A DNA stretch of 64,000 nt from Elusimicrobia bacterium GWB2_63_16 (GCA_001799715.1 MGTZ01000028.1:10954-74953); one strand, 5' to 3'; shown: positions 43,601-57,862, counted from the first letter of the stretch. Numbers and translations are program-made. Notes: a model not told the origin generated them from the letters alone.

Positions 43601-43858
43601 TATCTCCACGTCATAGCGGCCCTTGGTCACCCTGACGTCGCAGCGGGTCTCGGAGAACAGCGGGCTGGTGATGCCGGTGGGAGTATCGTAGATATAGAAC
43701 TTCAGGTCCTGCGGCGTTTCCACCGGCAGGTTGGTGATCTTGCTGATCAGGTAGCCCTGGTAGTTTATCGTCGGGGTTATCACGGCGGCGGCTGGCGCCG
43801 CGAGCAGCAGCGCGCCCAGCGCGCCTGCGAGCAGATTTTTAACGTGAGTAGAATTCAT
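40637..43858 (-). CDS. Large secreted tail-fibre-like repeat protein with Cys-rich C-terminal knob
   Basis: 1073 aa with signal peptide and an N-terminal INYQGYL module. Repeated F(Y/F)GDGSGL..(L/V) and LKAGDTMTGQLTL(A/S)GSTLTV motifs (aa 295-326, 369-408, 508-540, 749-762). Duplicated ARLHV modules. Last ~70 aa contain 6 Cys. GGAGG SD. Confidence 0.8.
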   Translation of the reverse strand: MNSTHVKNLLAGALGALLLAAPAAAVITPTINYQGYLISKITNLPVETPQDLKFYIYDTPTGITSPLFSETRCDVRVTKGRYDVEIGSAVAGGIPASIFAERDGLWLEIQVDGDNDCAGAFEAMSPRVKLQASPYSFSSVYATTSSVATSMFLADTIGAHPTTANGAITISTNLFVLGGISVGSISPGQTLAVAGMVESKGSLPACADDLSCGFKFPDGSVQTRAAALTMWEVAGPHVYSINPGNVSIGQNNTNPQARLHISSAAGDTGDLLLVSTGTSQLFLVNGLGQVHGGSFYGDGTTLTGVLRKAGDTMTGQLTLSGSTLTVASAEGLLSPKIKFAGGIELSSAAAAQRGGIFISSHVYLMPGATFYGDGSGLINLISSDTSKVLKAGDTMTGQLTLAGSTLTVTGSAFSVGGSSLSVLGGNTAIGSASYLARLTVGGGIIATSSITAQGSMHAASVHAPSGIGNFYNVTATTGTIWGWDPGTTYSLDTASGVLVRAGVVNAPYFVGNGSLLTSVTGTDSTKLLKAGDTMTGNFIVSPASATLASFGAHKYALTVSSSATSNAYTLAVTTAGRVGVLVPAPAAPLDVAGEAMVSYANTVTGAAKLSIKSYNDYSYIHWTNSSLVASGGVNLGVLGYPGGLERDLIYRAVGSDPWNGGQEVFRVKADQYGNWLFGIGSSPSPADQPREKFHVMANLLVSSATANAMPLLYVSTTAGKVSIGTTAQTHLLTVNGGINAVSSVTAQGGFFGDGSGLTNLVTDSLPGLIQISTITARTGGLYDAVLFSTSVYVQNKLAVGGLFNPQSDLHLKGQLRLDQKAGEEVVLSLYPNLGGNSYIVWNEGATPQKGVLGMVSSERDLVYRGGATTLGNGVQAFRIKDTGPFIVGEVDKNFLPASRLHVATDLTVSVSGAGSTPALYVSTASRSLGVNTGAPQARLHVDGYSLFSASASVLGGGLAGTQSVLEVVGSTLVVRANGTVGIGVASPAERLDVAGKVKATGFAASRERVSAPCPANTICAAGCTAGKVLMGGGCTQTGTVNLLKSYPSSDTVWTCEFASNVDITAYAICSTVE

Positions 43859-43873: not shown

Positions 43874-45490
43874 TTACCTGACCACGACCACGGTGCCGTT
43901 ATAGACGGTGCCGTCGGCCTCCAGCTGGTAGATGTAGACCCCGCCCGGCACCGCCTGGCCGCCGGCCTTGGCGTCCCAGACGAGGGAATTGGACACGGGA
44001 CCGCCCGTCATGCTGCCCACCAGGGCGCCGCGCAGGTCGTAGATCTTGCCTTTCACGCTCTTCTCCTGCGGGTTGTCGAAAATAAAGACCATCGTATCAT
44101 TTTTGCCGTCCCCGTTTGGAGTGATCAGGCGGTTGGTCAGGCCGGCTTTGTCCGCCGAGAAACCGCCGCTGCGCTCGGTGGTCCGCAGCTGGTAGCGCCC
44201 CAGCAGCCTGGTGTCCAGGCGCACGCTGCGCTCGTCCTCGTCGACTATGCCGTACATCTGCAGCCAGCGCGCGCCGTTGAAGTAGTACATGCTCAGCGCC
44301 TTGGCGTCCGCTCCGGCGGAGGGAACTATCGCGCCGCCGGCTTTGGCGTAATAGAGTTTCAGCGTGCCCTTGCTGGCCAGCTGGAAGAGCGGGTCAGCCT
44401 GCAGACCGCCGCGGTAGGCGGAGAACTCCACCGATTTGACCACGCGCCCGCTCAGGTCCTCGATATGCGTGGAGATGTCGAGAGTGTAGACGTCCATCGG
44501 ATCGGCCGAGGGGGAGAAGAAGCTGCCGGTGCCCTCCTGCGGCACCTCGAAGACGCTCTGGTTGTCGGGGGCCAGGAAGTAGAGGCCGCCCGACTCGCTG
44601 GAACGCACGTACGAAGGCAGCGAGACGCCGGCCTGGTTCACCGCGCGGGCGTGGTAGTAGTAGGGATCGGCGGTGGGAACGATGTCCGTCCAGTTCAGCG
44701 TGCTGGAGGAGGTTTCGGCGATCTGCACCCACTCCGCGTCGGCGGGAGCCGTGGCGCGGTAGACCTCGTATCTCTTTACCTCATAGGGGTACGACGGGCT
44801 GAAGCGGTTGTCGAAAGGGATGCGGTTCATGTACCCGGCCGGCGGGATCCAGGTCATGGTGACGGCGTTGCCGGTGCGCGCGAGCTGGAAGTTCATCGGG
44901 GCCAGCGGGGTCAGGGCCAGCGCCGCGGCGGCGTTGGAGATCTCCGAGCGCAGGTAATGGCTGTTGAGCGTCTCCATGGCGAAGTAATAGGTGGTGCCGG
45001 CCTGGAACCCCTCTACGATCCGGCTCTCGCGCGTGCCGGGCTCCAGCGGGACCCAGTCCTGGCCGTAGACCTGCGCCGCCGCGAAGCCCTCGTCGGTGGA
45101 GACCGGGGCGACGGAGCTGTAGCGCAGTATATAATAGCCGGCGGCCTCGGCGTTCCGGCTGGCGTCGGCGGAGGGGGCCGTCCAGGTGAGCCGGATGGAA
45201 TAACTGGAGACTATCACCGGCGTCAGGTCGAAGACCGGGGCGGGGAAAGGGTAATAAGCCAGCTTGCCGCTGCGGTGGATCAGACCGGAGGCCTCCTGCG
45301 TGGAGACGGCCAGGTCCTGCACGTTGCCGTTCATCTCGAAACTCGGCGAGACCATGTAGGAGGAGCCGTTGCCGGTGGCGCCGGTGATGTCTATGAAATT
45401 CGCGGAGGTGAGCCGGGAGGCGCGCGCCTGCCCGGCCGGCAGCAGGGCCGACAGGGCGAGCAGGGAAAAGAAACAGCGCCTGAAGTTCAC
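43874..45490 (-). CDS. Secreted protein with two FN3-like domains and a CHU_C / T9SS-type-B-like C-terminal domain
   Basis: C-terminus ITPNGDGKNDTMVF...KIYDLRGALV...WDAKAGGQAVPGGVYIYQLEADGTVYNGTVVVVR. FN3-like LTWTAPS / MTWIPPAG modules. I prefer the GTG at 45490, directly before the signal peptide FRRCFFSLLALSALLPAGQARA and 6 nt after a TATAAT. The track start is the ATG at 45562. Confidence 0.75.
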   Translation of the reverse strand: MNFRRCFFSLLALSALLPAGQARASRLTSANFIDITGATGNGSSYMVSPSFEMNGNVQDLAVSTQEASGLIHRSGKLAYYPFPAPVFDLTPVIVSSYSIRLTWTAPSADASRNAEAAGYYILRYSSVAPVSTDEGFAAAQVYGQDWVPLEPGTRESRIVEGFQAGTTYYFAMETLNSHYLRSEISNAAAALALTPLAPMNFQLARTGNAVTMTWIPPAGYMNRIPFDNRFSPSYPYEVKRYEVYRATAPADAEWVQIAETSSSTLNWTDIVPTADPYYYHARAVNQAGVSLPSYVRSSESGGLYFLAPDNQSVFEVPQEGTGSFFSPSADPMDVYTLDISTHIEDLSGRVVKSVEFSAYRGGLQADPLFQLASKGTLKLYYAKAGGAIVPSAGADAKALSMYYFNGARWLQMYGIVDEDERSVRLDTRLLGRYQLRTTERSGGFSADKAGLTNRLITPNGDGKNDTMVFIFDNPQEKSVKGKIYDLRGALVGSMTGGPVSNSLVWDAKAGGQAVPGGVYIYQLEADGTVYNGTVVVVR

Positions 45491-45496
45491 AATGTA

Positions 45497-45502
45497 ATTA
45501 TA
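45497..45502 (-). promoter_or_regulatory. TATAAT -10 box 6 nt upstream of the GTG at 45490
   Basis: Reverse complement of attata at 45497-45502, within the AT-rich divergent intergenic region. Confidence 0.4.
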
Positions 45503-45594
45503 TACCGGCCGTGCGACCAAAATATTACAAAGAGATTTCGGCTTACGCCGGGCAGAATCCATAAATATGAAACAAAACAGTCACAAATGAAAAG

Positions 45595-45600
45595 TAGAAT
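45595..45600 (+). promoter_or_regulatory. TAGAAT -10 box 8 nt upstream of the ATG at 45609
   Basis: tagaat at 45595-45600, then tagtctgt, then ATG. No SD. Confidence 0.4.
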
Positions 45601-45608
45601 TAGTCTGT

Positions 45609-46010
45609 ATGAAGCCCTGCAAAGCCGTTCTCAGCCTCCTCGCCGCGCTGGCGCTCGCCCCCGCGGCGGCGTTCTGCTCCGCGTCGGCGCTCGGCCGCTC
45701 CGTGGCGCTCAACCGCCTGGTGACGCCCAACAACGACAAGAAGAACGACACTTTTATTTTCCGCTGCTATAACCCGCGCGACGCGGCCGTGGACGCGAAG
45801 ATCTACGACCTCGCCGGCCGCGAGGTGGCCCAGATGCGCCTCAAGCAGCGCTCCAACGGCACGCCGCCCGTACAGGACAACAGCTCGGGAGAATTCTACG
45901 ATCTGGAGTGGGACCCGAACCGGGGGGAGAAGTACCCCGGCGGCGTCTACGTCTACCAGGTCCGGACGGAAGAGCAGGTGTATAAGGGTACTGTAGTCAT
46001 TATAAGGTAA
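45609..46010 (+). CDS. Stand-alone CHU_C / T9SS-type-B-like sorting-domain protein (signal peptide plus domain only)
   Basis: 133 aa. Signal peptide, then LVTPNNDKKNDTFIF...KIYDLAGREV...WDPNRGEKYPGGVYVYQVRTEEQVYKGTVVIIR, collinear with the C-terminus of the 43874 gene. Confidence 0.75.
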   Translation: MKPCKAVLSLLAALALAPAAAFCSASALGRSVALNRLVTPNNDKKNDTFIFRCYNPRDAAVDAKIYDLAGREVAQMRLKQRSNGTPPVQDNSSGEFYDLEWDPNRGEKYPGGVYVYQVRTEEQVYKGTVVIIR

Positions 46011-46017
46011 GCGACAT

Positions 46018-47988
46018 ATGAACCGCGCCACCGCCACGAAGACCGCTCTGACCGCAGCCCTGCTGCTGGCGCCGCTTTGCGTACGGGCGGCCTTCGAGGA
46101 CCTGGGCTTCGGGGCCAGGGGCCCCGGCATGGGCGACGCCGTCACCGGCGTGGCCGACGACGTTTCCTCGGTCTACTACAACCCCGCCGGCCTCGGCGGC
46201 CTGGAGCGCCCGAAGGCGCTGGCCTCCCATTCCCTTTTCCACGGGGGGCTCAGCGACGGCTCCAGTCTGGGCCTCAGCGTGGCCGCGCTGGCCATGCCCA
46301 TAGGCAACGGCCGCCACGGCACCATCGGCGCGGCCTGGCAGGATTTCTCGCTCTCCGGCGTCTATTACGAGAAGACCGGCACCGTGGCCTGGGGCTACCG
46401 CTTCGACCGCGGCAGCCGCTACGAGAAACTTTCGGTGGGCGCGTCGCTGAAATACCTGTCGCACGGCTTCTCGCGCCTCGACGAGGCTTACAACGCCGTG
46501 ATGGAAAACCTCTCCCAGACCGGCGCCACGGACCCGGTGCTGGCCGGCGCCAACTCCCGCGGCGCCCTGGACGCCGATCTGGGCGCGCTGTACCGCCTCA
46601 CCAACCGGTGGACGCTCGGCGCGGCCATACTCAACGCCATGCAGGCCAACGTGGCTTTCAGCGAGTCCGACAAGGACCCCGTGCCCATGAAGGCCCGGCT
46701 GGGCGCCTCGTTCAAGAGCCTCTGGCTGCTCCTGTCCGCCGACGCCAGGCTGCAGAAGGGCCCCGACGGCAGCCTGGACAAGCAGTTCGTGGTGGCGGCC
46801 GAGAAGGTGTTCCCCAGCCTCGACCGCGGCGAGTTCGGCGTGCGGGGCTCGCTCGGCGCCGGCGACAGGGAATTCAAGCAGGCCACGCTGGGTCTCTCCT
46901 ACAAGATACAGCGCATACAGTTCGACTACGGCTTCATGCTGCCCATCGGAACGGTCAAAGAGACCTCCGGCAACCACCGCATGGCCCTGTCCTACCATTT
47001 CGGCACGCCTACCCAGTCCGAGATCGCCGAGAGCGAGCTGCTGGACCAGTACAAGCGCCTGCGCGAGACGCAGAACTACAAGGGCGCCCGCGATACCGCC
47101 AGCCTCAACGACCCCCGCCTGGCCGAAGTGAAAGAGCAGGTGCTGCGCGAGAATTATTACGCGGCCAACAAGCTGCTGGTGGCCAAGGCGGGCGAGCTGC
47201 TGCCCGATTCCTCCGTGGTCAACCTCACGCGCCGGCTCTCGGCCGTCGCGGCCTACTACCCGTCGCTGGCCCCCGAGCCGGGCCGCGGCCGCCAGCGCTG
47301 GGAGGACCTGCTCGCCAGCGGCGTAAGGGATTTCGTGAACGGCGCCGACAACCGCGCCATGAAGAAGCTGGCCTACGCCCAGAGCCTCAACCAGCAGGAC
47401 GGCGGGCTGGCCAACTTCCTGGACAAGGCCGGCGAGATCTCCCGCATTACGCCGGACAAGGTGCCGGCCGATTTCAGCCGCGGCTGGCCCGAGTACAAGC
47501 TGGACCAGTCCGACGAGTTCTACGCCAAGAAGCGCTATTCCGAGGCGCTGCGCAAGCTCGAGGAACTGCTGGACATAGAGCCGGCCTACCTGATGGCCCT
47601 TAAGAAGAGCGGCTCCTGCAACTATATGCTGGGCGCCTACTCCCGCGCCGCCCGCGACTGGGAGAAGGCCTCGCGCGCCGAGCCGGACCCGGTGGAGAAG
47701 GCCAAGCTGGCCAAGATGACCGCGGAGGCCCGCAAGAAGCAGGGCACGGAATCTTCCTGGGAGCCCGAGACCGGCTCCTACCGCGACGAAGCGGCGGGCG
47801 AGCCCGTGCTAACCGGCGCGGCGGCCAACGCCAGGGAGATCGAGAAGCTCTACCAGGCCGGGGCCGACGCCTACGCGAAGGGCGAATACGGCAAAGCGGC
47901 CGACGCCTTCCGCAAGATCCTGACGCTGGACCCGCAGAACACGCAGGCCAAGAAGGCCCTGGAGCGCATCATCAGGCTCTCCAGGTAA
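46018..47988 (+). CDS. Outer-membrane beta-barrel (PorV/PorQ/FadL-like) fused to a C-terminal TPR/helical domain
   Basis: Signal peptide. GARGPGMGDAVTGVADDVSSVYYNPAGLGG motif near the N-terminus, as in the PorV/PorQ/TraF/FadL-type barrels I recall. Alternating-strand pattern to about aa 330 (ends HRMALSYHF). Then TPR-like repeats to aa 656. Confidence 0.65.
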   Translation: MNRATATKTALTAALLLAPLCVRAAFEDLGFGARGPGMGDAVTGVADDVSSVYYNPAGLGGLERPKALASHSLFHGGLSDGSSLGLSVAALAMPIGNGRHGTIGAAWQDFSLSGVYYEKTGTVAWGYRFDRGSRYEKLSVGASLKYLSHGFSRLDEAYNAVMENLSQTGATDPVLAGANSRGALDADLGALYRLTNRWTLGAAILNAMQANVAFSESDKDPVPMKARLGASFKSLWLLLSADARLQKGPDGSLDKQFVVAAEKVFPSLDRGEFGVRGSLGAGDREFKQATLGLSYKIQRIQFDYGFMLPIGTVKETSGNHRMALSYHFGTPTQSEIAESELLDQYKRLRETQNYKGARDTASLNDPRLAEVKEQVLRENYYAANKLLVAKAGELLPDSSVVNLTRRLSAVAAYYPSLAPEPGRGRQRWEDLLASGVRDFVNGADNRAMKKLAYAQSLNQQDGGLANFLDKAGEISRITPDKVPADFSRGWPEYKLDQSDEFYAKKRYSEALRKLEELLDIEPAYLMALKKSGSCNYMLGAYSRAARDWEKASRAEPDPVEKAKLAKMTAEARKKQGTESSWEPETGSYRDEAAGEPVLTGAAANAREIEKLYQAGADAYAKGEYGKAADAFRKILTLDPQNTQAKKALERIIRLSR

Positions 47989-48015
47989 GGGGGGACGGAC
48001 CGCAGGCGCAGCCGT

Positions 48016-49347
48016 ATGAAATTATTCCACAAATTCAGCGCGGCCCTTATGGCCGCCGCTCTGGCGGCGGCCCTGCTGCTTTCCGGCATCTTCTTCAGCT
48101 TCCAGAACCGCACCGTGCGCCAGGCGCAGGAGGACCGCCTGCAGGCCCTGGCGCAGTCCGCGGCGGCCATGCTCGGCGAGGCAGAGCTGGCCGGCGACCC
48201 GCTGATGGCGGTGGATTACCTGTCCGGCTTGTGCTCGTCGCGGGCGGAGATAGCCGCCTGCCGCCTGGACATCGGCCGCGGCCTGCGGCCGGTGAAGACC
48301 CGCGGCAAGGCCCCGGCCCCGAAGGGGGACGTTCCCGTGCCGCGCGAGCTGCGCGGCGGCAAATATTCCGCGCAGCTGCTGTTCTCGTCGGCGGCGCTGG
48401 AGCGCGAGCGGCGCGAGGCCCTGGCCGGCGTCTGGCATGACCTGGCCGCCGCCTTCCTGGGCGCCATGGCCGCGGCGGCCCTGCTGGGCGTGCTGGTGGC
48501 CCGCCGGCTGACGCGGCGCCTGCGGCGGCTGGCCGAGGAGGCCGCGCTGGTGGGCGAGGGGCGCTTCGGCGCCAAGACCGACGCCTCCGGCTCCGATGAG
48601 GTGGCCGAGCTGGCCGGCGCTCTGAACGCGATGAGCGACCGCCTGCTCGAGCTGGAGACGATGAAGAAGAACTTCACCGCCTCCGTCACGCACGAGCTGC
48701 GCTCGCCGCTGGGGGTAATAGAGACCTACGCCGCGCTGCTCCTCAAGGAGAAGGAAAAATTCAGACCCGAGGACCTGGAGGTCTTCACGCGCATCAAGGA
48801 GAACGCCGGACGGCTGGCCAACTTCGTGACCGCCATGCTGGACCTGGCCAGGATCGAGCGGGGCCGGATGGACCTGCGCCCGGCCGCCGAGGACCCGCTG
48901 GCGCTCGCGCGAGATGCGGCCGACTTCCTCCGGCCTAAGGCGGAGGAGAAGGGGATAACCCTGGCGGTGGAAGGCGGCCCGCCCGGCGGCACCGCGCGGC
49001 TGGACCGCGAACTGGTCACGCATGTCCTCACCAATCTGCTCTCCAACGCCCTCAAGTTCACCCCGGCGGGCGGGAGCGTCACGCTGCGCGCCGCGCTTGC
49101 CGGCGGCAGGTGCCGGTTCGAAGTAGCCGACACCGGGCCCGGCCTGCGCGAAGGGGAAGCGCAAAAGCTGTTCGCCCCTTTCACGCAGGGCTCGGCGGCG
49201 CCCGGCCACGGCGGTACCGGCCTGGGCCTGGCCCTGGTGAAAGCCATCGCCGAGCTGCACGGCGGCAAGGCGGGCTGCGGCCCGGCCCCCGGCGGCGGCG
49301 CGGCGTTCTGGGTAGACCTGCCGGACGGCGGGGAAACCCCGAAATAA
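48016..49347 (+). CDS. Sensor histidine kinase (2 TM, HAMP, HisKA, HATPase_c)
   Basis: H-box FTASVTHELRSPLGVIE, N-box LTNLLSNALKF, and G-boxes DTGPGL / GGTGLGLA. Confidence 0.9.
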   Translation: MKLFHKFSAALMAAALAAALLLSGIFFSFQNRTVRQAQEDRLQALAQSAAAMLGEAELAGDPLMAVDYLSGLCSSRAEIAACRLDIGRGLRPVKTRGKAPAPKGDVPVPRELRGGKYSAQLLFSSAALERERREALAGVWHDLAAAFLGAMAAAALLGVLVARRLTRRLRRLAEEAALVGEGRFGAKTDASGSDEVAELAGALNAMSDRLLELETMKKNFTASVTHELRSPLGVIETYAALLLKEKEKFRPEDLEVFTRIKENAGRLANFVTAMLDLARIERGRMDLRPAAEDPLALARDAADFLRPKAEEKGITLAVEGGPPGGTARLDRELVTHVLTNLLSNALKFTPAGGSVTLRAALAGGRCRFEVADTGPGLREGEAQKLFAPFTQGSAAPGHGGTGLGLALVKAIAELHGGKAGCGPAPGGGAAFWVDLPDGGETPK

Positions 49348-49366
49348 CTTTGTAACCTGCTTTATA

Positions 49367-49372
49367 TACAAT
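49367..49372 (+). promoter_or_regulatory. TACAAT -10-like hexamer 6 nt upstream of the GTG at 49379
   Basis: AT-rich 30-nt gap after the kinase stop: tttatatacaatatagct GTG att ATG. Confidence 0.3.
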
Positions 49373-49378
49373 ATAGCT

Positions 49379-50830
49379 GTGATTATGACCGCACCCCTAC
49401 GCCTTTTAGCCGTCCTGTCCCTCTGCCTGACCCTTAACGCGGGCGCGCAGGAGGCCGACCCGGCCCTTTCGCCCACCGCCCAGGGCTCCGAGATCTCGGC
49501 CCGCATGCAGGAGGACGTGTCGAAGCTGCTCGAGGAACTGCTCGGCCGCGGCCGGGCCCGCGCTTTCGTCACGGTGGAGGGGGAGATAGTGCTCAAGAGC
49601 AAGAGCGAGTCCGGCTCCCCGCCCGAAGAGAACCTGACCCTGCCCGGCTACTCGGCCGTCAACATCCTCGAGAAGACCGGCGAGTACCTCAAGCAGCAGC
49701 GCGCCGAGAGCCAGCGCACCAGCGAGTTCCGCGTCAAGCGGCTCGCGGTTTCACTCGTTTTCGACCGCGCCGTCCCCGACGCCCGCGTGAACGCCATCAA
49801 GCTGATGATCGCCGAAGTGCTGCGCGTCAGCGAGCAGCGCGGCGACACCATCATCACCGCCAAGGCCGAAATGCTGCCCTGGTGGAAGAGCGCCCTCGAG
49901 GCGCCCGAGATCCGCCCGGTGCTGGTGGCCTCCGCCTTCGGCGCGCTGGCGCTCGGCGTGTTGCTGATCTTCGGCTACATCCTGGCCTCCAAGCTGCTCA
50001 GCGGCTTCGTGGACTACGCCCGCATCAACGGCCCCGCCGCGGCCGCCGCCGGCCCCGCGGGCGGCGCCCTGGGCGGCCCCGGAGAAAGCGAGGGCGGCGA
50101 GGTGGGCGAGTTCGGCGAGATCATAGACGTGGAGTCCAAGGCCGCCTCGGGCGGCGCCATGCTGACGGCCGGCTCCGCCTTCGATTTCATCGAAAAGCTG
50201 CCTCCGTCGGACTCCGCCGAGCTTATCGCGGACCTGCCCGACGAGGACGCCGCCATCATCATAGCCAACCTGGCCGACCGCAGGCCCCATATTTCCTCCA
50301 AGGTGCTGCTGGCGCTGCCGCCCGCCAAGCGCCAGTCCGTCTCCGCCTTCCTGCTGGGCCTCAAGCAGGCCGAGCCCGAGCGCGTCTACGAGATCGAGAA
50401 CGACCTGCGCCTGAAGCTCGAGAAAAGCCTCAAGGGCGCCGAGAAGCTGGGCCGCCTGCTGTCGCTGGTGGACGAGGGCGCCCGCAGCGAGATCATGGAC
50501 AATCTCAACCGCGCCGACCCGAAGGCCTCCGAGGAACTGCGCAGCAGGATGGTGACGTTCGACGACCTGTGCCGCCTCGAAGAGAAGAACCTCAAGCCGC
50601 TCGTGGTGTCGCTGCCGTACGCCGACTGGGCCACCGCGCTGGCCGGCGCCGGCGAGGTGGCCACGGGCAACGTGACCCGGCTGCTGCCCGAGGACGTGCG
50701 CCTGGTGGTCAAGGACCTGATGATGACCCGCCCCGAGGACGAGCGGGTGATCGGCGCCAGGGCCAAGATAATTTCCGCCGCGATGGACCTCAACGCGAAG
50801 GGCCGCATAGTCCTGAAGGGGGGCGCGTGA
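49379..50830 (+). CDS. FliF-like (ring-building motifs plus TM) / FliG-like fusion protein
   Basis: Signal peptide. Periplasmic part has LEELLGRGRARAFVTVEGEI and RLAVSLVFDR...IAEVLRVSEQRGDTIIT (FliF/YscJ RBM-like). TM at aa ~179-207 and a Gly/Ala linker. aa ~265-483 is collinear with FliG N/M/C (ADPKASEELRSRMVTFDDLCRLEEKNLKPLV...ATALAGAG...KGRIVL). Start is the GTG at 49379 or the ATG at 49385. Confidence 0.7.
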   Translation: MIMTAPLRLLAVLSLCLTLNAGAQEADPALSPTAQGSEISARMQEDVSKLLEELLGRGRARAFVTVEGEIVLKSKSESGSPPEENLTLPGYSAVNILEKTGEYLKQQRAESQRTSEFRVKRLAVSLVFDRAVPDARVNAIKLMIAEVLRVSEQRGDTIITAKAEMLPWWKSALEAPEIRPVLVASAFGALALGVLLIFGYILASKLLSGFVDYARINGPAAAAAGPAGGALGGPGESEGGEVGEFGEIIDVESKAASGGAMLTAGSAFDFIEKLPPSDSAELIADLPDEDAAIIIANLADRRPHISSKVLLALPPAKRQSVSAFLLGLKQAEPERVYEIENDLRLKLEKSLKGAEKLGRLLSLVDEGARSEIMDNLNRADPKASEELRSRMVTFDDLCRLEEKNLKPLVVSLPYADWATALAGAGEVATGNVTRLLPEDVRLVVKDLMMTRPEDERVIGARAKIISAAMDLNAKGRIVLKGGA

Positions 50831-52812
50831 GCCGCCCCGCCGACGCCTTCGACTCCGACCTGGACTACCTGTGGCGCGCCGTGGGCGAGGCCCAGGACGC
50901 CTCGTCCCGCTCCGAGGCAGAACGCGCCGAGGCCCGCAAAAGCCTCGCGCTCTATGCCTCCAGGGCCGCGCTGCTTGAGAAACAACTGGCCGAGAGCCAC
51001 GCCCGCGAGAGGCATTTGAAGGCCGAAGCCGAGAAGCTGCGCTCCGCCGCCGGGCTCGGCTCGGAACGGCTGGCCGCCGCCGCCGCGGCCGCGCGCGAAG
51101 CCGAAGAGCTGCGCAGCGCCCTGCTGCGCAAGGAGGGTGAGCTCGCCGCCGCCGCGCCCGAACTCGAGGACCTGCGCGCCAGATCGAAAAATCTGCGGGA
51201 GGCCCTGGCCGCCCGCGACGAGGCTATCGCCGCGTTCAGGGGCAAGCTCACGGCCATAATGGAACTGCCCGAGATAGACCGGTTGCTGCGCGCCGACGAG
51301 GCCGCCACCGGCAAGCCCCGCCCGCTTTACGAGGAACTGCTGGAACGCCTGGAAGCCTCCAGGCGCGCCGCCGCCGGCTCGGCCGCCGCGCTGGCCGCCG
51401 CCGCCGAAGGGGAGGCCGCAGCCCGCCTGACCCTGGAAGCCGCCGAAAAGGAACTGGCCGAACAGCGCGACGCGCTGCGGCAGAAGAATTTGGATCTGGA
51501 AGGGCTGAAGAAGGCTGTCAGCGAGGCCGCCTATCAGGCGAGGATCTCCGGGGAGGAGAAGCAGGCGCTGGAAAGCCGCGCCGCCGCCCTCAAGGCCGCC
51601 ATAGCAGAGAAAGAAGCCGCCCTGGCCGCGGCCGCCGACGAGTCCGCCTCGCTGCGCGCCCGCCTGGACGCCTCCCGGGAGGAGGCCGAGCGCCTGCGCC
51701 AGTCAGCCGACGAGCATTCGGTAAAGGCGCAGGAGCAGCGCAGCAATTTTTCGGGAGCGGTGAGCCAGGTCTTCGACCTGCAGAACCGCGCCGCCGCGCT
51801 CAAAACGGCGCTGGGCGAGGCGCAGGAGCGCAGCGCGGCCGCCGCCTCCATGCTCAAGGCCCGCGAGGCCGACCTGGAAAAGGTCAACGGCCTGCTGCGC
51901 GACGCCAAGGGCGCCCTGACGCAGGAGAAGGAAGTTTCCCGCCGGGAAATGGTGAAGATAAAGGCGCTGGAGGCCGAGATAGACGCCCTCAAGACCAAGC
52001 TGGGCGCCGCCGCCGATTATTCGGCGCGGCTGCTCAAGGCCGTGGAGGAGCGCGACCTGGCCCTGGGCGCCGGCAAGGCCGCGCAGGCGCAGGACGGCAA
52101 GAAGCTGGCCGACCTCGAGATCGAGAACGAGGACCTGCGCCGAAAGAACATAAAATTTACCGGCCTCCTCAAGCGCGAACAGGCCGATTTCTCGGCCAGG
52201 ATGCTGGTCTCGCTGGAGCGCTCCGCCAGGGAGCTCAAGAATTTCAACCTGCGCATCCCCGCCGCCGAGCGCAAGGCGCTCGAGCCCGCGCTGAAGACGC
52301 TTTTCGCCTCCGTGAACCTGCTCAAGGGCTGGCAGGAGTACCTGGACCCCGAGACCCCCGACATGGAAGACACCGACCTCGCCTCCCTGGTTTCCGTCGA
52401 GACCGGCAAGTGGGAACGCGCCTTCAAGCAGCGCAAGATCTCCATCACCGCCGCCATCCTCAACCCGCGGCTGCGCGCGCGGCTGGCGCCCGAGCGCGTG
52501 AAGATGCTGTTCTACAACCTCATCAAGAACGCCTACGAGCGCCTGCAGCAGGGCGGCAGCCTGCGCGTGACCATGAAGAGTTCCGACGACGCGCGCCTGG
52601 CCGTCTTCACCTTCGAGGACACCGGCCCCGGCTTCGCCCGCGAGGCGCTGGACAAGCTTTTCGCCCCGTTCAACACCACCGACAAGGGCAAGGCCGGCAT
52701 AGGCCTGGCCGTGGCGCGGCGCATAGCCGAGAAGCACGGCGGCACGCTGGAAGTCACCAACAAGAAAGAACGCGGGGCCATAGTGGAAGTGCGCCTGCCC
52801 CTGGGCGTATAA
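50827..52812 (+). CDS. Cytoplasmic long coiled-coil protein with C-terminal HATPase_c domain (kinase-like, H-box apparently degenerate)
   Basis: Track ORF 49882-52812 trimmed to the GTG at 50827 (GTGA overlap with the upstream stop). About 450 aa of Ala/Glu/Leu/Arg heptad-like sequence. C-terminus has N-box FYNLIKNAYERL and G-boxes EDTGPGF / GKAGIGLAVA. The H-box position reads VSLERSARELKN. Confidence 0.65.
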   Translation: MSRPADAFDSDLDYLWRAVGEAQDASSRSEAERAEARKSLALYASRAALLEKQLAESHARERHLKAEAEKLRSAAGLGSERLAAAAAAAREAEELRSALLRKEGELAAAAPELEDLRARSKNLREALAARDEAIAAFRGKLTAIMELPEIDRLLRADEAATGKPRPLYEELLERLEASRRAAAGSAAALAAAAEGEAAARLTLEAAEKELAEQRDALRQKNLDLEGLKKAVSEAAYQARISGEEKQALESRAAALKAAIAEKEAALAAAADESASLRARLDASREEAERLRQSADEHSVKAQEQRSNFSGAVSQVFDLQNRAAALKTALGEAQERSAAAASMLKAREADLEKVNGLLRDAKGALTQEKEVSRREMVKIKALEAEIDALKTKLGAAADYSARLLKAVEERDLALGAGKAAQAQDGKKLADLEIENEDLRRKNIKFTGLLKREQADFSARMLVSLERSARELKNFNLRIPAAERKALEPALKTLFASVNLLKGWQEYLDPETPDMEDTDLASLVSVETGKWERAFKQRKISITAAILNPRLRARLAPERVKMLFYNLIKNAYERLQQGGSLRVTMKSSDDARLAVFTFEDTGPGFAREALDKLFAPFNTTDKGKAGIGLAVARRIAEKHGGTLEVTNKKERGAIVEVRLPLGV

Positions 52813-52839
52813 AGAAAAAGGGCGGGAAAGCTCCCGCCC
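52811..52839. terminator. Bidirectional terminator between convergent operons
   Basis: Hairpin gggcggga-aagc-tcccgccc (52820-52839) preceded by aaagaaaaa. This gives a U-run on the minus strand. Confidence 0.6.
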
Positions 52840-52860
52840 GTGCCGCCGGTACAGCCAGCC

Positions 52861-53541
52861 TTACAGCCTGAAAATGTAGCCCAGCCTGAAGATAGTCCCT
52901 ATCTTGCTCCCGAAGCGCCCCAGCTTGCGGCGCAGGGCCTCTATGCGCTTGTCCACGGCGCGGGGGCCGGCTTCGGCCGCGTCCTTCCACACCTGTTCCA
53001 GCAGGACGTAGCGCGAGACCACGCGCCCCTGGTTGCGGAGGAAATAGAGAAGGATGTCGAATTCCAGGGCCGTGAGCCTCACCTTTTTGCCGCCAACGCT
53101 GGCAGCGCGGGCCTCCGGCGAGATGAGCAGGTCGCCGAACTCGTACTCGGCGGGTTTCTCCGGCCGCGGCCGGCCGGCGGGGCCGCGCCCCAGCAGGTTC
53201 AGCAGCCGCGCCCGGAACAGCAGCGGGTCGGGGGGGAAGGCGAAATACTCGTCGGCGCCGCTATCGAAAGAGGCGGCGGCCGCGGCCGGGGAATAGGGGG
53301 CGGCGCCGGTCAGCACCAGCAGCAGGCCGGCGGTCCCGGGGGACCCGCGCAGCGCGGCCACCAGGTCTCCGCCGCCCATGTCCGGCAGCGCGGCGTCTAT
53401 CACGGCCAGCCCGGCGGCCGGGGGGGCTTTCAGAAAAGCGGCGGCGGTGGGGTAGAACTTCAGCGCGAAGCCCGCCAGCGCGGCGCGGTAAAAGGCCCGG
53501 GCGGCGGGATCGGAGGTAAGACAGAAGGCGGCAGGCTTCAT
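52861..53541 (-). CDS. OmpR-type winged-helix regulator with atypical receiver domain
   Basis: C-terminal LTALEFDILLYFLRNQGRVVSRYVLLEQVW...VDKRIEALRRKL trans_reg_C pattern. The receiver keeps the D in VIDAALPDM, lacks the N-terminal DD pair, and has YFAFP where Y-x-x-KP is expected. Confidence 0.8.
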   Translation of the reverse strand: MKPAAFCLTSDPAARAFYRAALAGFALKFYPTAAAFLKAPPAAGLAVIDAALPDMGGGDLVAALRGSPGTAGLLLVLTGAAPYSPAAAAASFDSGADEYFAFPPDPLLFRARLLNLLGRGPAGRPRPEKPAEYEFGDLLISPEARAASVGGKKVRLTALEFDILLYFLRNQGRVVSRYVLLEQVWKDAAEAGPRAVDKRIEALRRKLGRFGSKIGTIFRLGYIFRL

Positions 53542-53915
53542 GCGGGCAGCACGGCGGCTTTAATGCGGCGCAGGAGCTCGTCGGGGTCGAACGGCTTGAG
53601 CACGTAGCCGGCCGCGCCGAGCGCGAGGCCCTGCGAGACCATGTCCAGCTCGGAACGCACGGTAAAGAAAATGATGGGGGTTTTGGCCAGGGCCGGGACC
53701 TTGCGGATACGGCGGGCGGCCTCGAACCCGCTGACGTCGGGCAGACCCACGTCGAGCAGGATCAGGTCGGGGAGTTCCCTGGCGGCCAGCTCCACCCCCG
53801 GCAGGGCGGCGGCGGCGGTGAGCACGGCGCAGCCGGCCTTGGCCGCTATGCGCGAGGCGATGCGCAGGTAATCGGGTTCGTCGTCCACCACCAGGATCAC
53901 GGGGCGGGGGGTCAT
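53538..53915 (-). CDS. Single-domain response regulator (CheY-like)
   Basis: ILVVDDEPD, LILLDVGLPDVSG, FFTV, and YVLKPF. Confidence 0.9.
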   Translation of the reverse strand: MTPRPVILVVDDEPDYLRIASRIAAKAGCAVLTAAAALPGVELAARELPDLILLDVGLPDVSGFEAARRIRKVPALAKTPIIFFTVRSELDMVSQGLALGAAGYVLKPFDPDELLRRIKAAVLPA

Positions 53916-54298
53916 TTCTTCCTGGTCAGGTCCTCTACTTTCTTCTGCAGGTAGGAGAGTTCCACGGTCTTGCTCATGAACTCGCGGCAGTTGGACTCCT
54001 GCCGGAACAGCTCGCTCATGTTCTTGTCGAAGAACGTGCCGGTGATGACCAGCACCGGGATGGAGCGGGTCTCGTCGTCGGCCTGCAGGCCGCGGATGAC
54101 CTCTATGCCGCCGATGTCGGGCATCATCACGTCGCAGAGGATGATGTCCGGGCGTATGGCCTTGGCCTTCAGCAGGCCCTCGCGCCCGTTCTCTGCGATC
54201 TCCACCGTGAAACCGAGGTCGGTGAAATAATCGCAGACCATAGTCCGGAATTCCACGTTGTCGTCAACGATAAGCATCAGTCCCATATTCTGTCCCAT
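53912..54298 (-). CDS. Single-domain response regulator (CheY-like)
   Basis: LIVDDN, IILCDVMMPDIGG, and VLVITG. Confidence 0.9.
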   Translation of the reverse strand: MGQNMGLMLIVDDNVEFRTMVCDYFTDLGFTVEIAENGREGLLKAKAIRPDIILCDVMMPDIGGIEVIRGLQADDETRSIPVLVITGTFFDKNMSELFRQESNCREFMSKTVELSYLQKKVEDLTRKK

Positions 54299-54330
54299 GC
54301 GGTCTAGTATATTTCAAATGCGCCCGGTTT

Positions 54331-56451
54331 TCAAGAGGGCGAGGGGATGGGCGGGGGCGGGGCCGCCAGCGACTTGGCCACGGTGAAGATGAACTTGCTG
54401 CCTTTGCCCACCTCGGACTCCACCCAGATGTCGCCCTTGTGCAGCTGCACCGTCATCTGGCACATGGCCAGGCCCAGGCCGAAGCCCTGGCTCTTGTGCT
54501 CCTCCATCTGGCCGTATTTCTCGAAGATCTCCTTGCGCTTGGCCTCCGGAATGCCGGGGCCGGTGTCCTGCACGGCGAAGAACACCTGCTTATCGTCCTC
54601 CCAGGCGGAAAGCGTGATGGTGCCGCCGCCGGGGGTGAACTTGAGCGAGTTGCCCATCAGGTTGGTGATGACGCGCTCGAGCAGGGTCGGGTCGGCGGTG
54701 AAACTGATCTTCGCCGGCGGGGGGACCACCACGAGCTTGATGTTCTTGGGCCCGGCGACCGGCTCGTGGTTGTCCTTGATGCGCGCGATCACGGTCTCGG
54801 CGTCCACCGTGTCGAGCTGCAGCGTCATCGTGCCGCGCTCGAGCTTGGTGACGTTGAGGATGTCGTCGATCATGCCGCGCAGGCGGCGCGACGAATAGAG
54901 CATGCTCTGGAGATACTTGTCGGTGGCGGGGGAGGGGCCGATCTTCTTCATCAGCAGCTCCGTATAGCCCTGCAGGGTCGACAGCGGGGCGCGCATGTCG
55001 TGCGTGATCATGTGGAAGAAATCTTCCTTGGCCTTTTCGATCTCCTTCTCGCTCGTGATATCGCGGATGATGATGACGCGGCCCGGGCGCTTGAGCGTGG
55101 CCAGCAGGAACTGGTTGGAGATGACGCGGAAGCTCTTGGTCACCGTGGAAGTCTCGTTGACGAGCGGGGCGTCCAACTCGGTCTTAAGGTACTTCTCCTT
55201 GTGCGCCAGCATCTCGGTCAGGGCGTTGAAGAAAGCTTCGTTCTTGACGGAGCGGGGGACGGCCACCTCGGGGGAGATCTTGGGGATGCCGAGGAGCTTG
55301 AGCGCGGTGTTGTTGCAGTAGATCAGCGAGCCGCGGTCGTCTATCAGCAGCACGCCGTCGGAGATGGTGTCGATGAGCGCCTGGGCCTTGCCCTTCTCCT
55401 CCACGATCTGGTTGAGCTGGAAGGCGCGGTAGGCCTGCAGCTCCAGCATCAGTCGGTTGAGCACGCCCACGAGCGACTTGATCTCGGGCCAGCCCTCGGC
55501 GGGGATCACATTGTCCAGGTGCTGGGTGCGCAGAAAGCCTTTGACGCCGCCCACCATGTTGTTGATGGGGCGGATGATGCGGTTGGAGACCAGGAACACC
55601 ACGACCATGGCGATGGCGAAAATGACGACGGCCAGCGCCGCGAACACGATGATGGATTTGCGCTGCTTGCCGTAGAGTTCCTCTTCGGACTGCACCGAGA
55701 CGGCGGCCCAGTCCAGGTCCTCGATGGCGGCGTAGGCGCCGGCGAACTCCTCGCCGGAGAAAAGGAACTGGGACAGCGTGCCGGTGCGGCCGCCGCTGCG
55801 GAAGACCTTGCGCAGGTCCTCCGGCTTGAAGTCCAGGCCTTTCATGTCCTGGCAGGGGAGGGGCTTGCCCTGGCGGTCGGAGATGAAGACGCGGCCGCTG
55901 GCGCCGGTCTTCTGGGAATTGATCTTGCCCAGCAGTTTGTCCATCGAGAAATGGAACACGACCACGCGGCCGTCCACCAGCGGGTAGGCCAGCGGGAAGT
56001 AGGTCTGCGCGCGCAGGCAGATGGGGTCCCCGGTGGAGACCACGCCGCTGTCGGCGGCCTTGGCCACCAGCGCGGCCTGGAAGGAGGCGAGGGACTTCTT
56101 TTCGCGCACGGTCTCGCTCTGCAGGAAGAACAGCTCCTTCCCGTCGGCGGCGACCAGCGCCAGCGACATGATATCGGAATTGATGCGCGCCGCCTGCTGT
56201 ATCACCTGCGTCTCGTCCACCTTCCTGCCGCGCAGGGGGTTCTCGAACTCGTAGAGAAAGGCGAGGTTGCGGTTGGTGTTCTTGAGCCACTCGTCCACGT
56301 TGGCGGCCGACAGCCGGGACAGGCCCTTGTGCAGTTCGAAATAGCTGGCCACCGAGGAGTTGTACTGATAGACGTTCCAGCCGACGGCCAGCACGAGCGG
56401 GAGCACCGCTATGCCCAGCAGGATCAGCAGGAACCTCGTGGTCAGTTTCAT
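54331..56451 (-). CDS. Sensor histidine kinase (periplasmic Cache-like domain, HAMP, PAS, HisKA, HATPase_c)
   Basis: Two TM helices flank a ~240-aa periplasmic domain. H-box FFHMITHDMRAPLSTLQGY. NLMGNSLKF, QDTGPGI, and GFGLGLA motifs. Confidence 0.9.
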   Translation of the reverse strand: MKLTTRFLLILLGIAVLPLVLAVGWNVYQYNSSVASYFELHKGLSRLSAANVDEWLKNTNRNLAFLYEFENPLRGRKVDETQVIQQAARINSDIMSLALVAADGKELFFLQSETVREKKSLASFQAALVAKAADSGVVSTGDPICLRAQTYFPLAYPLVDGRVVVFHFSMDKLLGKINSQKTGASGRVFISDRQGKPLPCQDMKGLDFKPEDLRKVFRSGGRTGTLSQFLFSGEEFAGAYAAIEDLDWAAVSVQSEEELYGKQRKSIIVFAALAVVIFAIAMVVVFLVSNRIIRPINNMVGGVKGFLRTQHLDNVIPAEGWPEIKSLVGVLNRLMLELQAYRAFQLNQIVEEKGKAQALIDTISDGVLLIDDRGSLIYCNNTALKLLGIPKISPEVAVPRSVKNEAFFNALTEMLAHKEKYLKTELDAPLVNETSTVTKSFRVISNQFLLATLKRPGRVIIIRDITSEKEIEKAKEDFFHMITHDMRAPLSTLQGYTELLMKKIGPSPATDKYLQSMLYSSRRLRGMIDDILNVTKLERGTMTLQLDTVDAETVIARIKDNHEPVAGPKNIKLVVVPPPAKISFTADPTLLERVITNLMGNSLKFTPGGGTITLSAWEDDKQVFFAVQDTGPGIPEAKRKEIFEKYGQMEEHKSQGFGLGLAMCQMTVQLHKGDIWVESEVGKGSKFIFTVAKSLAAPPPPIPSPS

Positions 56452-56457
56452 ACGTAC

Positions 56458-57084
56458 TTAGATCTCGTGCCTTATGATGTTGATCTCTATGCGCCGGTTC
56501 TTGGAGCGCCCTTCGGGGGACTCGTTGGTCTGTATCGGCTTGAACTCGCCGTAACCCACGGCGGAGAGCTTCTCGGGGGCCACGCCTTCCTTAATGAAGA
56601 ACTGCAGCACCGAGAAGGCGCGGGCGCTGGAGAGTTCCCAGTTGGAGCGGAAGCGGGTGCCGCGGCCCAGCGGGCGGTTGTCGGTGTGGCCCTCTATCTG
56701 GATGGGGTTGGGCAGGTCCTGGAAAACGGCGGTCAGGCGGCGCAGGTGGGGGTAGGAGGAGGGCTTGAGCACATCGCTGCCCGGCGTGAACAGGATAGGG
56801 TCGGAGAAATTGATGCTGATCTTGTTGGCCGAGATCTCCACCTGGGCTATCTGCTGTATGCCGTGCTTGGAGAACAGGGTGCTGGCCACCTCGGTGTCCT
56901 TGCCGAAGGTCTCCTCGATGGCCTTGGCGGAGAACTGGGAGGTGATGTTCTTGGAGCTGTAGAAAGCGAAGAGGATCATGAAGAAGATCATCAGGTAGCT
57001 CATCATGTCGCCGTAGGTGATGGCCCACAGCGCGCCCCGGTTGAGCTCGTTCTCCAGTTCGTCCTCGCGTTCGTAGAAGCGCAT
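56458..57084 (-). CDS. motB: MotB-type stator subunit (OmpA-like peptidoglycan-binding domain)
   Basis: WAITYGDMMSYLMIFFMILF with the conserved channel Asp. C-terminal IEGHTDNRP...NWELSSARA...NRRIEI OmpA-like motif. Confidence 0.85.
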   Translation of the reverse strand: MRFYEREDELENELNRGALWAITYGDMMSYLMIFFMILFAFYSSKNITSQFSAKAIEETFGKDTEVASTLFSKHGIQQIAQVEISANKISINFSDPILFTPGSDVLKPSSYPHLRRLTAVFQDLPNPIQIEGHTDNRPLGRGTRFRSNWELSSARAFSVLQFFIKEGVAPEKLSAVGYGEFKPIQTNESPEGRSKNRRIEINIIRHEI

Positions 57085-57088
57085 AGTT

Positions 57089-57862
57089 TTATTTACCCTT
57101 GGCCGCGGAGCCGCCGTCGAGCGTCAGGTAGCCGCGCAGGTGCATGTCTATGAGGTGGGGGGTCTTGCCGCTCATGATATCGATCACGCCCTCGAGGATG
57201 AGCTGCAGCACCAGCGTCTCCTCCATGGCGCGCAGGCGGATCTTGTTGGCCACCGGCACGCAGAACATGTTGGAGAAGCCGATACCGAACAGGGCCGAAG
57301 TGATGGCCACGGCCATGGAGCGGCCGATGGCGGTGGGGTCGGAGATGTTGGAGAGCGTCTGGATGATGCCGAACAGGGTGCCGATCAGGCCGAACATGGG
57401 GGAGAGCACGCCGGCGGTGCGGTACAGGTTGGAGTCCTCGGAGATGTCCAGGCGGCGCAGGCGGATCTCCTCTTCCAGTATGGCGCGGGTCTCGCGCGAC
57501 TCCGCGCTGACCATGGCCACGCCCACCGCGCGCTTCAGGAAGCCGTTGGCGAAGGAGGCGTCCACGCTGGTCAGGGCCATGATGCCGCCCTGCTTCTGCG
57601 CGGTCTCGGCCATGCCCACGAGCATGCGCACCGCCTCGTGCACGGAGGGCATCTTGGGGGAGGAGAAAATGGCCGCGAGGGCCTTGAGGCCGGTCACGAA
57701 GCGCCTGTAGGAGGTGTTGATGATGGTGGCGGCCAGGGTGCCGCCCAGCACTATCACGATGCCGTGGGAGTTGAAGATGTTGCCGGCCACGCCCGAGGAA
57801 TAGGCGCCCCAGGCCACCACGGCCCCGCCCAGCACGAAACCCACGATCGTCATCATATCCAT
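57089..57862 (-). CDS. motA: MotA-type stator subunit (MotA/TolQ/ExbB proton-channel family)
   Basis: 257 aa, 4 TM. Collinear by eye with MotA/PomA (MDMMTIVGFVLGGAVV..., GVLSPMFGLIGTLFGII, AITSALFGIGFSNMFCVPVANKI, ILEGVIDIMSGKTP). GGAG SD. Confidence 0.85.
   Translation of the reverse strand: MDMMTIVGFVLGGAVVAWGAYSSGVAGNIFNSHGIVIVLGGTLAATIINTSYRRFVTGLKALAAIFSSPKMPSVHEAVRMLVGMAETAQKQGGIMALTSVDASFANGFLKRAVGVAMVSAESRETRAILEEEIRLRRLDISEDSNLYRTAGVLSPMFGLIGTLFGIIQTLSNISDPTAIGRSMAVAITSALFGIGFSNMFCVPVANKIRLRAMEETLVLQLILEGVIDIMSGKTPHLIDMHLRGYLTLDGGSAAKGK

Follow-up and report, generated by a model that had tools for sequence, protein, structure and literature searches.

The histidine of the H-box is required for kinase activity in histidine kinases (HKs), and to our knowledge few histidine pseudokinases have been described, namely DivL, RetS, PsmA and a variant of ChrS. 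RetS antagonises the kinase GacS by forming a heterodimer through the dimerisation and histidine phosphotransfer (DHp) domain. DivL keeps all HK boxes except the histidine, binds phosphorylated DivK (DivK-P) on its DHp domain and signals 'in reverse', and its catalytic and ATP-binding (CA) domain is dispensable (PMC4211667). PsmA of Streptomyces venezuelae, in which the critical histidine is absent, acts together with coiled-coil proteins and modulates the polarisome based on DivIVA (PMC12963549). Free-living Elusimicrobiota are reported to have no structural genes for flagella while keeping homologues of motAB and fliG, whose role was described as 'unclear' (bioRxiv 10.1101/2022.07.08.499144). 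Here we analyse a stretch of 64,000 nucleotides from Elusimicrobia bacterium GWB2_63_16 (GCA_001799715.1 MGTZ01000028.1:10954-74953; hereafter the window), and in it the gene g07, whose product is very probably a histidine-less protein of the HK fold that acts as a partner of the FliG-like protein encoded by the preceding gene, g06.

The GTG start of g07 overlaps the TGA stop of g06 (49379-50830) as GTGA, with AAGGGGGG positioned 4 nt upstream. An (A/G)TGA overlap together with an AAGGAGG-type Shine-Dalgarno sequence occurs at the g06/g07 junction in 17 of 17 loci, the remote locus L007 included. A first-pass annotation of the window, made from the DNA alone, had proposed a 661-residue reading frame at 50827-52812 that is translationally coupled to a rotor-like gene, and both the frame and the coupling are confirmed by the translation and by these 17 loci. 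It had also considered a later ATG as the true start, which would remove the coiled coil; this is excluded because orthologues are 644-669 residues long and conserved from about residue 6, and because the overlap and the Shine-Dalgarno sequence recur in every locus. A longer in-frame open reading frame (ORF) beginning at 49882 was rejected on the same orthologue lengths and conservation. No transmembrane segment was found in g07, the highest 19-residue Kyte-Doolittle mean being 0.99, in agreement with the first-pass annotation.

The C-terminal part of g07 carries the features of a kinase. Pfam assigns HATPase_c alone (residues 555-659, E 5.9e-21), and the ATPase motifs that had been noticed in the first pass, NLIKNA at 564, DTGPGF at 598 and GKAGIGLAV at 621, do belong to a complete domain, with N568, D598, G600, G602, F615, K620, G624 and G626 invariant in our main alignment of 35 orthologues. 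In the AlphaFold2 (AF2) model an alpha/beta domain at residues 514-658 follows a DHp-like helical hairpin, and in Foldseek comparisons with the Protein Data Bank (PDB) about 230 C-terminal residues align to whole DHp-CA modules, including those of HK853 and EnvZ, with template-modelling (TM) scores of 0.71-0.78 for ZraS (9jfj), 0.70-0.75 for RetS and 0.69 for DivL (4q20). The CA sequence is nearest to the PDB entries ZraS, ThkA, KinB and EnvZ (E 1e-17 to 1e-15). Because of these structural and sequence matches, we consider the C terminus of g07 to be a class I kinase core whose DHp region has diverged beyond profile recognition. Comparison with HisKA-family profiles, which might have uncovered a histidine overlooked in the first pass, gave no Pfam match to HisKA, HisKA_2, HisKA_3 or H-kinase_dim, either for g07 or, at E<=10, for segment 434-542 taken alone.

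Two other classes of ATPase were considered for this module and rejected. Column 564, four positions before N568, holds His in 17, Gln in 10 and Asn in 8 sequences and never Glu; since the catalytic Glu of the ExxxN motif is thus absent, g07 is not a hydrolase of the GyrB/Hsp90/MutL type, and the best matches, all of them histidine kinases, likewise speak against a GHL ATPase (GyrB/Hsp90/MutL/MORC). A CheA-type kinase was set aside in view of the lack of any Pfam match to HPt, H-kinase_dim or CheW-like domains and of any conserved histidine outside the CA domain. Judged by its motifs, the CA domain looks competent to bind ATP; conserved CA boxes are, taken by themselves, no proof of kinase activity.

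g07 has four histidines (58, 63, 297 and 637). Just one of them, H637 within 'KHGG' of the ATPase domain, is invariant among the 35 aligned orthologues, while positions 58, 63 and 297 are not conserved, and in orthologue P0026 the equivalent of H637 is the sole histidine of the whole protein. Thirty of the 35 orthologues have no histidine at all in residues 425-510, and no conserved histidine was found in the remote family members (24-35% identity overall), so that the check proposed in the first pass, for another conserved histidine in the DHp-like helices, yields no candidate. That annotation had placed Leu at the position of the phospho-acceptor. Its claim that the histidine is replaced stands, as no histidine occurs at column 457, 458, 460 or 461 in any of 43 main-family sequences, but the residue named does not, Leu460 being off by two to three residues and A457/R458 being likelier. 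In the same 43 sequences, column 457 is occupied by Ala (16), Thr (7), Ser (7), Gly (6), Asp (5), Glu (1) and Gln (1), and column 458 by Arg (31), Lys (10) and Gln (2).

The position of the lost residue was approached through remote relatives with a short coil, three of which retain half an H-box of the form x(I/V)(K/R/I)KPL (P0088 'sGEVIKPL', P0098 'iSHIKKPL' and P0108 'vRHVRKPL'). When these relatives are aligned with canonical HKs by hhalign, the canonical His falls on G, S and R, and the canonical Glu on E, H and H, in P0088, P0098 and P0108, respectively. MAFFT and hhalign (probability 100) in turn align the half H-box with A457-R458-M-L-V-S462-L463 of g07. By this bridged alignment A457 appears the more likely equivalent of the histidine, although the exact column is uncertain, with 450, 457/458 and 460 as candidates. 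The 'xKPL' half-box kept in remote relatives suggests that the g07 family descended from a genuine kinase, and we take g07 to descend from a class I sensor kinase (NtrB/ZraS/KinB-like), of which it retains the hairpin fold of the DHp and, in complete form, the CA domain for ATP binding.

That g07 is instead an ordinary autophosphorylating HK with an overlooked histidine, or that its gene model is wrong, is effectively refuted. Direct hhalign of residues 425-661 to nine canonical HKs does place the 'HE' of the H-box on R450-E451, and P0056 reads RHEQADF there. However, the confidence of this alignment is minimal in that stretch, and the apex spacing and the bridged alignment favour 457/458. Among 56 family members, position 450 is Arg in 48, Asn in 5, Gln in 2 and His in 1 (P0056 only). 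P0026 has no histidine outside the CA domain, and the start codon is confirmed.

The partner gene g06 joins parts of two flagellar ring proteins in one polypeptide. After a signal peptide come an alpha-beta-beta-alpha-beta periplasmic domain (residues 93-162), a transmembrane helix (179-217), a disordered Gly/Ala-rich linker and the FliG middle and C-terminal domains (FliG_MC, 269-473). The FliF/FliG-like character attributed to this gene in the first pass is borne out by Pfam (FliG_C, FliG_M and a weak YscJ_FliF_C), by alignment to the FliG_MC region of T. maritima (E 1e-12) and by Foldseek matches of its AF2 model to FliG_MC (1e-8) and to RBM3 of the FliF MS-ring (3.5e-4). It has 117 homologues, and all 20 of those that carry an organism name are Elusimicrobia. 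A FliG-like gene also lies directly upstream in two of three remote g07 contigs (L007, with the same 4-nt overlap, and L089, 113 nt apart); in L089 the order of the cluster genes is unchanged up to the end of the contig, and L008 (2.8 kb) has an unannotated ORF of 227 residues upstream of the g07 relative. Since g07 is co-translated with g06, the two proteins probably bind each other. The obligatory link of g07 to this FliF/FliG-fusion protein is established genetically and is probable at the level of translation.

Some motor-interface residues of the cluster proteins were also compared. The charge pairs between rotor and stator involve R90/E98 of MotA and R281/D288-289 of FliG (PMC12505986), and we mapped them onto the cluster proteins by eye only. 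In this mapping the torque-helix equivalents D439, K445 and D446 of g06 are kept and the equivalent of R281 is not, and the equivalent of MotA E98 in the cluster looks like Thr. The EHPQR site, through which FliG binds FliM, appears by eye to be occupied in g06 (about residues 286-298) by a largely conserved P.EDAAIxIAN instead. Both interfaces of the rotor, with the stator and with the switch, may have changed in concert.

The FliG_M-like domain of g06 further contains an invariant H304-x-S306 and a nearly invariant S307, which bears on whether g07 could be an active kinase that acts on a histidine of another protein or on Ser/Thr/Tyr, the candidate substrates being the FliG-like protein (through H304) or g07 itself. 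Such activities have precedents, as the P1-less CheA4 of Rhodobacter sphaeroides phosphorylates CheA3, and the HK-like PDK/BCK kinases and SpoIIAB phosphorylate Ser/Thr/Tyr. The invariance of the ATP-binding and lid residues, the CA domain being both the most conserved region and nearest to the active kinases ZraS, ThkA and KinB, and the invariant motif in g06 are all in agreement with an active enzyme. However, neither g07 nor the cluster has an HPt, H-kinase_dim or CheW domain, DHp alpha1 has no conserved Ser, Thr or Tyr close to where the catalytic site is expected, and DivL keeps all CA boxes although its CA domain is dispensable. We therefore consider an active kinase unlikely. That g07 is a scaffold rather than a signalling kinase, as the first-pass annotation had put it, is nevertheless something that we infer, as it might still act in trans or on a residue other than histidine.

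In place of a sensor domain, g07 has a predicted rod of about 420 residues, which would measure up to about 60 nm if extended. AF2, run with the 35-sequence alignment (mean predicted local distance difference test score 75), gives rod helices at residues 4-145, 148-161, 168-236 and 242-421, and P148, G162 and Y168 are conserved around the first break (near 146-167). Ala, Glu, Leu, Arg and Lys make up 69% of residues 1-450, and a hydrophobic periodicity of 3.5 residues is significant across much of residues 1-420. Together, composition, periodicity and predicted helices corroborate the long heptad-like stretch described in the first pass. Within the mid-coil patch N307, F308, A311, V315, L318 and Q319 are invariant, and the patch can be made out in remote members as well. 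Conservation within the rod is highest at residues 11-16, in which D13, L15 and W16 are invariant in the 35-sequence alignment; L15, W16, A22 and Q23 remain so even at 24% identity, at the lower end of the remote relatives (24-35%). In flagellar systems phosphorylated CheY (CheY-P) is bound by the N-terminal EIDAL motif of FliM (PMC6946799; bioRxiv 10.1101/2022.04.21.489128). A motif of this type, E[ILMV]DxL, lies in the first 30 residues of 45 of 66 g07 family members and of 0 of 136 other HK-like proteins, against about 0.008 expected per protein, the motif being short and recognised post hoc.

The rod, with its conserved breaks and patches, raises the question whether g07 is mainly structural, a coiled-coil filament or track that would place or link FliG-like/MotAB units along the membrane and use ATP binding only to regulate its assembly. 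In Myxococcus, AglZ and FrzS are long cytoplasmic coiled-coil proteins of non-flagellar motility machines driven by motors of the MotAB/TolQR type, and they carry N-terminal pseudo-receiver domains and no HATPase_c. Translational coupling to a membrane ring protein fits such a role, as does Streptomyces PsmA, which modulates a DivIVA polarisome in which coiled-coil proteins are also involved (PMC12963549). However, the coil is the least conserved part of g07 and the DHp and CA regions the most conserved (mean column conservation 0.59-0.71 in the coil versus 0.80 in DHp and 0.83 in CA), which suggests that the function of g07 centres on the HK module. Furthermore, the rod has only faint generic coiled-coil matches in Pfam and no homology to AglZ or FrzS, and the comparison with these proteins made in the first pass holds as an analogy only, no relation in sequence or fold having been found. 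A mainly structural role thus seems quite unlikely.

Among 5.8 billion proteins searched we found 58 full-length orthologues with 47-98% identity, and every one for which an organism is named belongs to a metagenome-assembled genome (MAG) of Elusimicrobia; their database names include 'ATP-binding protein', 'hypothetical protein' and 'signal transduction histidine kinase'. We also ran a profile built from residues 425-661 on 1.84 billion cluster representatives. No more than 11 clusters matched over the whole profile (E 1e-121 to 3e-47), followed by ordinary kinases that match the ATPase part alone, and this sharp drop indicates that the g07 family is a discrete clade. A species-level scan of 185,579 genomes located full-length g07 at 14 loci, 13 in Elusimicrobia/Elusimicrobiota MAGs and one in a genome labelled 'bacterium'. 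Identity is 47-67% in all loci but the near-identical L001 (90%), which makes g07 the second fastest-evolving gene of its cluster. The orthologue at L090:10452-12512, a remote one, ends after the ATPase domain in a proline run, PPPPPPPPPPKKA, and its G1 box reads 'DNGHGF'. Loss of the ATPase in this L090 gene, which lies downstream of a FliG-like gene and has no Pfam entry on record, was considered and rejected, as its translation shows the HATPase motifs.

g07 is part of a cluster of 13 genes (Table 1), all of which (40637-57862) are syntenic in every long locus with 42-98% identity. Its chromosomal position is the same in 15 of 17 long loci. In the window it is flanked by riboflavin genes on one side and by acyl-CoA dehydrogenase/electron transfer flavoprotein (ETF) genes (58050-61200) on the other; in L090 and L091 it is intact with other flanks, purB/purA following it instead of the acyl-CoA dehydrogenase/ETF genes. 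Since it stays intact despite changed flanks, we regard it as one functional unit. The motor components are of flagellar type: g13 matches flagellar motor protein models of NCBIfam at E 2e-46 versus 4e-4 for TolQ, and a MotB plug with an OmpA-like domain, as in g12, counts as a flagellar-type trait in a recent survey (PMC12505986). No FliM or FliN was found within the 13 genes. Both single-domain receivers, g09 and g10, have intact phosphorylation residues. Zorya or another MotAB-based defence was rejected: PADLOC found no defence system and matched only MotB (as ZorB-like), with nothing for g06, g07 or MotA, and the position and integrity of the cluster are as stated above. In the literature searched we found no described FliG/MotAB/PorP system and no report of gliding in Elusimicrobia.

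Table 1. Features of the 13-gene cluster and of g07 (window coordinates; residue numbers refer to g07).
Feature	Coordinates	Strand	Basis
g01: 1073-residue secreted fibre-like protein, KAGDTMTGxLTL repeats	40637..43858	-	Translation; syntenic in all long loci
g02: 562-residue fn3 + CHU_C protein	43874..45562	-	Pfam; TIGR04131 type B sorting, E 1.5e-6, below cut-off
g03: 133 residues, CHU_C/T9SS (type IX secretion system)-sorting-like domain	45609..46010	+	Pfam CHU_C, E 1.2e-7
g04: PorP/SprF/PorV-like outer-membrane barrel + TPR repeats	46018..47988	+	NCBIfam PorV/PorQ, Pfam TPR; PorP_SprF on orthologues
g05: canonical HAMP-HisKA-HATPase histidine kinase	48016..49347	+	Pfam; H-box THELRSPL present
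g06: signal peptide + FliF-RBM3-like periplasmic domain + transmembrane segment + FliG middle/C-terminal domains	49379..50830	+	
Shine-Dalgarno-like AAGGGGGG (50816-50823) + GTGA start/stop overlap (50827-50830) with FliG-like gene	50816..50830	+	
g07: 661-residue coiled-coil, His-less HK-like protein	50827..52812	+	ORF, translation, orthologues, HATPase_c-only Pfam match
Coiled-coil rod, residues 4-421, breaks near 146-167 (conserved LPE...SGK...Y) and 237-241	50836..52089	+	AF2, heptad periodicity, composition
N-terminal motif D11-L-D-Y-L-W16, family consensus (E/D)(L/M/I)D(Y/F)LW	50857..50874	+	Resembles EIDAL
Conserved mid-coil patch EQ(R/K)xNFxGAVxQVFxLQ, residues 303-319	51733..51783	+	
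DHp-like helical hairpin: alpha1 425-474, loop, alpha2 479-506, no His	52099..52344	+	AF2, Foldseek, His census
H-box-equivalent stretch F455-S-A457-R458-M-L-V-S-L463; A457, phospho-His column; R458, His+1	52189..52215	+	
CA (HATPase_c) domain, N, G1, F and G2 boxes intact	52360..52803	+	Pfam, PDB sequence matches
g08: OmpR-type regulator (Trans_reg_C), degenerate receiver	52861..53541	-	Pfam, alignment
g09: single-domain receiver, D11, D12, D55, T85, K107 conserved	53538..53915	-	Pfam, alignment, PDB
g10: single-domain receiver nearest PleD, CheY, RR468, DivK	53912..54298	-	Pfam, alignment, PDB
g11: dCache-PAS-HisKA-HATPase sensor kinase	54331..56451	-	Pfam
g12: MotB (plug + OmpA-like peptidoglycan-binding domain)	56458..57084	-	Pfam; NCBIfam MotD/MotB
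g13: MotA, flagellar PomA/MotC type	57089..57862	-	Pfam; NCBIfam

Several observations concern the outer genes of the cluster and its surroundings. g01, the fastest-evolving cluster gene (42-83% identity), is built of the unit 'KAGDTMTGxLTL(A/S)GSTLTV' with a Cys-rich C terminus and matches nothing in Pfam or NCBIfam above threshold; we presume that its repeats resemble those of phage tail fibres or chlorovirus glycoproteins. The likeness of g02 and g03 to sorting domains adjoins the PorP/SprF-like g04 in a phylum outside the Fibrobacteres-Chlorobi-Bacteroidetes (FCB) superphylum, both proteins reaching the Pfam threshold for CHU_C and most NCBIfam matches lying below cut-off; for g03, type A T9SS sorting in NCBIfam just reaches the cut-off (23.6 versus 23 bits) and type B stays below its own. 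In the window clade g08 lacks the acidic pair and matches Response_reg only at E 0.09, and the syntenic gene in the remote L089, L090 and L091 still scores for both Response_reg and Trans_reg_C. Degeneration of g08 would be a second loss of phospho-signalling capacity in the same cluster. The left boundary of the cluster is formed, at about 26000-40440, by a nuo-like NADH:quinone oxidoreductase operon and a riboflavin operon (ribBA, ribH, ribD, ribE), both of an ordinary housekeeping kind. Two ORFs without a family match, 42473-45772 (+, 1099 residues) and 52840-53607 (+, 255 residues), were dismissed as shadow ORFs; they lie opposite 43874-45562 (-), 40637-43858 (-) and 52861-53541 (-) in DNA of 65-70% G+C, and such ORFs are misleading to naive ORF callers.

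The presence of two genuine kinases in the cluster bears on whether g07 might be a RetS-like antagonist, its histidine-less DHp forming a heterodimer with the DHp of g05 or g11 and blocking autophosphorylation there. g05, g06 and g07 lie in one apparent operon, and the g07 model superposes well on the kinase region of RetS, with the TM scores given above. However, g07 is coupled translationally to the FliG-like gene and not to a kinase, it lacks the sensor and receiver domains of RetS, and no similarity could be detected between the sequence of its DHp and that of HisKA in either g05 or g11. We regard such antagonism as improbable.

The interpretation that we favour is that g07 is a cytoplasmic histidine pseudokinase that serves a non-flagellar FliG-MotAB motor as adaptor or switch, a proposition that we judge to be evenly balanced. 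The lack of a conserved DHp histidine, the invariant ATP motifs and the coupling in 17 of 17 loci support the pseudokinase or scaffold attached to a rotor protein that was suggested in the first pass. The adaptor or switch mechanism itself we put forward only tentatively. In this mechanism, g07 would be a rod-shaped dimer bound to the FliG-like ring and would work without autophosphorylation. The genuine kinases g05 and g11 would phosphorylate the single-domain receivers g09 and g10, and the phosphorylated receivers would dock on g07, either at its EIDAL-like N-terminal peptide or at the receiver-docking face of its histidine-less DHp, or at both, the latter resembling DivK-P on DivL. g07 would then relay the signal to the FliG-like ring on which the MotAB stator acts, and motor output would change. 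Presumably, g07 would thereby stand in for the missing FliM/FliN switch.

Four points weigh against this interpretation. Strict conservation of every ATP-binding residue would be unneeded in a pure adaptor, although DivL shows the same pattern. Two of the three informative short-coil relatives (P0098 and P0108) have a histidine at the His+1 column, and therefore some lineages might still be kinases. The EIDAL likeness is that of a motif of five to six residues recognised after the fact, and is to be taken as a lead only. Lastly, the nearest solved relatives of g09 are receivers of the OmpR family, PleD and Spo0F and not CheY, on which ground we rejected g09 as a specific CheY orthologue.

For the cluster as a whole, one can conceive of a hitherto undescribed ion-driven machine of non-flagellated Elusimicrobiota, in which MotAB would act on an MS-ring/C-ring made of one polypeptide (FliF RBM3, transmembrane segment and FliG_MC) and g07 would be its receiver-responsive switch or clutch. 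The output would be the movement or display of surface fibres, these being the CHU_C/T9SS-sorting-like proteins held by the PorP/SprF-TPR outer-membrane protein, in a gliding-like process that arose outside Bacteroidota. We hold this picture to be doubtful, if possible. The surrounding machine may be more novel than g07 itself. The cluster offers a concrete, testable list of parts for the motAB/fliG puzzle of free-living Elusimicrobiota and suggests a way of regulating a FliG-MotAB torque unit in which FliM/FliN play no part. Furthermore, it bears on the reuse of flagellar rotor and stator for other tasks at the envelope, and on the question whether T9SS-like surface anchoring (PorP/SprF with C-terminal sorting domains) occurs outside the FCB superphylum.

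Compared with known systems, g07 resembles the kinases NtrB, ZraS, ThkA and KinB in its CA domain, to which theirs is nearest, sharing a short ATP lid ('F-x-P-F-x-T-T-x-K-G') and an NAxE N-box; unlike them, it has no HisKA H-box, histidine, sensor or transmembrane segment, and of the H-box its remote family members retain just one half, 'x(I/V)xKPL'. Its N terminus resembles the EIDAL motif found at the same end of FliM, and there is a parallel in the tie to FliG, FliM acting on FliG and g07 being coupled to a FliG-like protein. However, Pfam finds no CheC-like middle or SpoA domain in g07, everything before the CA domain is helical in the AF2 model, and there is no homology beyond the short motif. 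DivL of Caulobacter crescentus likewise combines class I DHp and CA domains, with N, G1, F and G2 boxes kept, and the lack of a phosphorylatable histidine, although no specific sequence relationship between it and g07 was found. DivL has Tyr at the position of the histidine, N-terminal PAS domains and a membrane anchor, whereas g07 has Ala/Arg there, a 420-residue coiled coil, no sensor domain and a FliG-like partner. RetS of Pseudomonas aeruginosa and PsmA are HK-like and act without autophosphorylation, and RetS gives the best superposition of g07 on a pseudokinase. Unlike g07, both RetS and PsmA are hybrid proteins with receiver and/or sensor domains, without a long coiled coil of their own and without a link to a motor. 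A long coiled coil without a sensor, combined with a FliG-like rotor partner, was not found in the literature searched. With its HK fold kept and its acceptor histidine absent across orthologues, g07 is to be grouped with DivL, RetS and PsmA as a histidine pseudokinase. To this group it would bring a new architecture, with a rod in place of the sensor, and, in the FliG-like rotor protein, a partner of a new kind.

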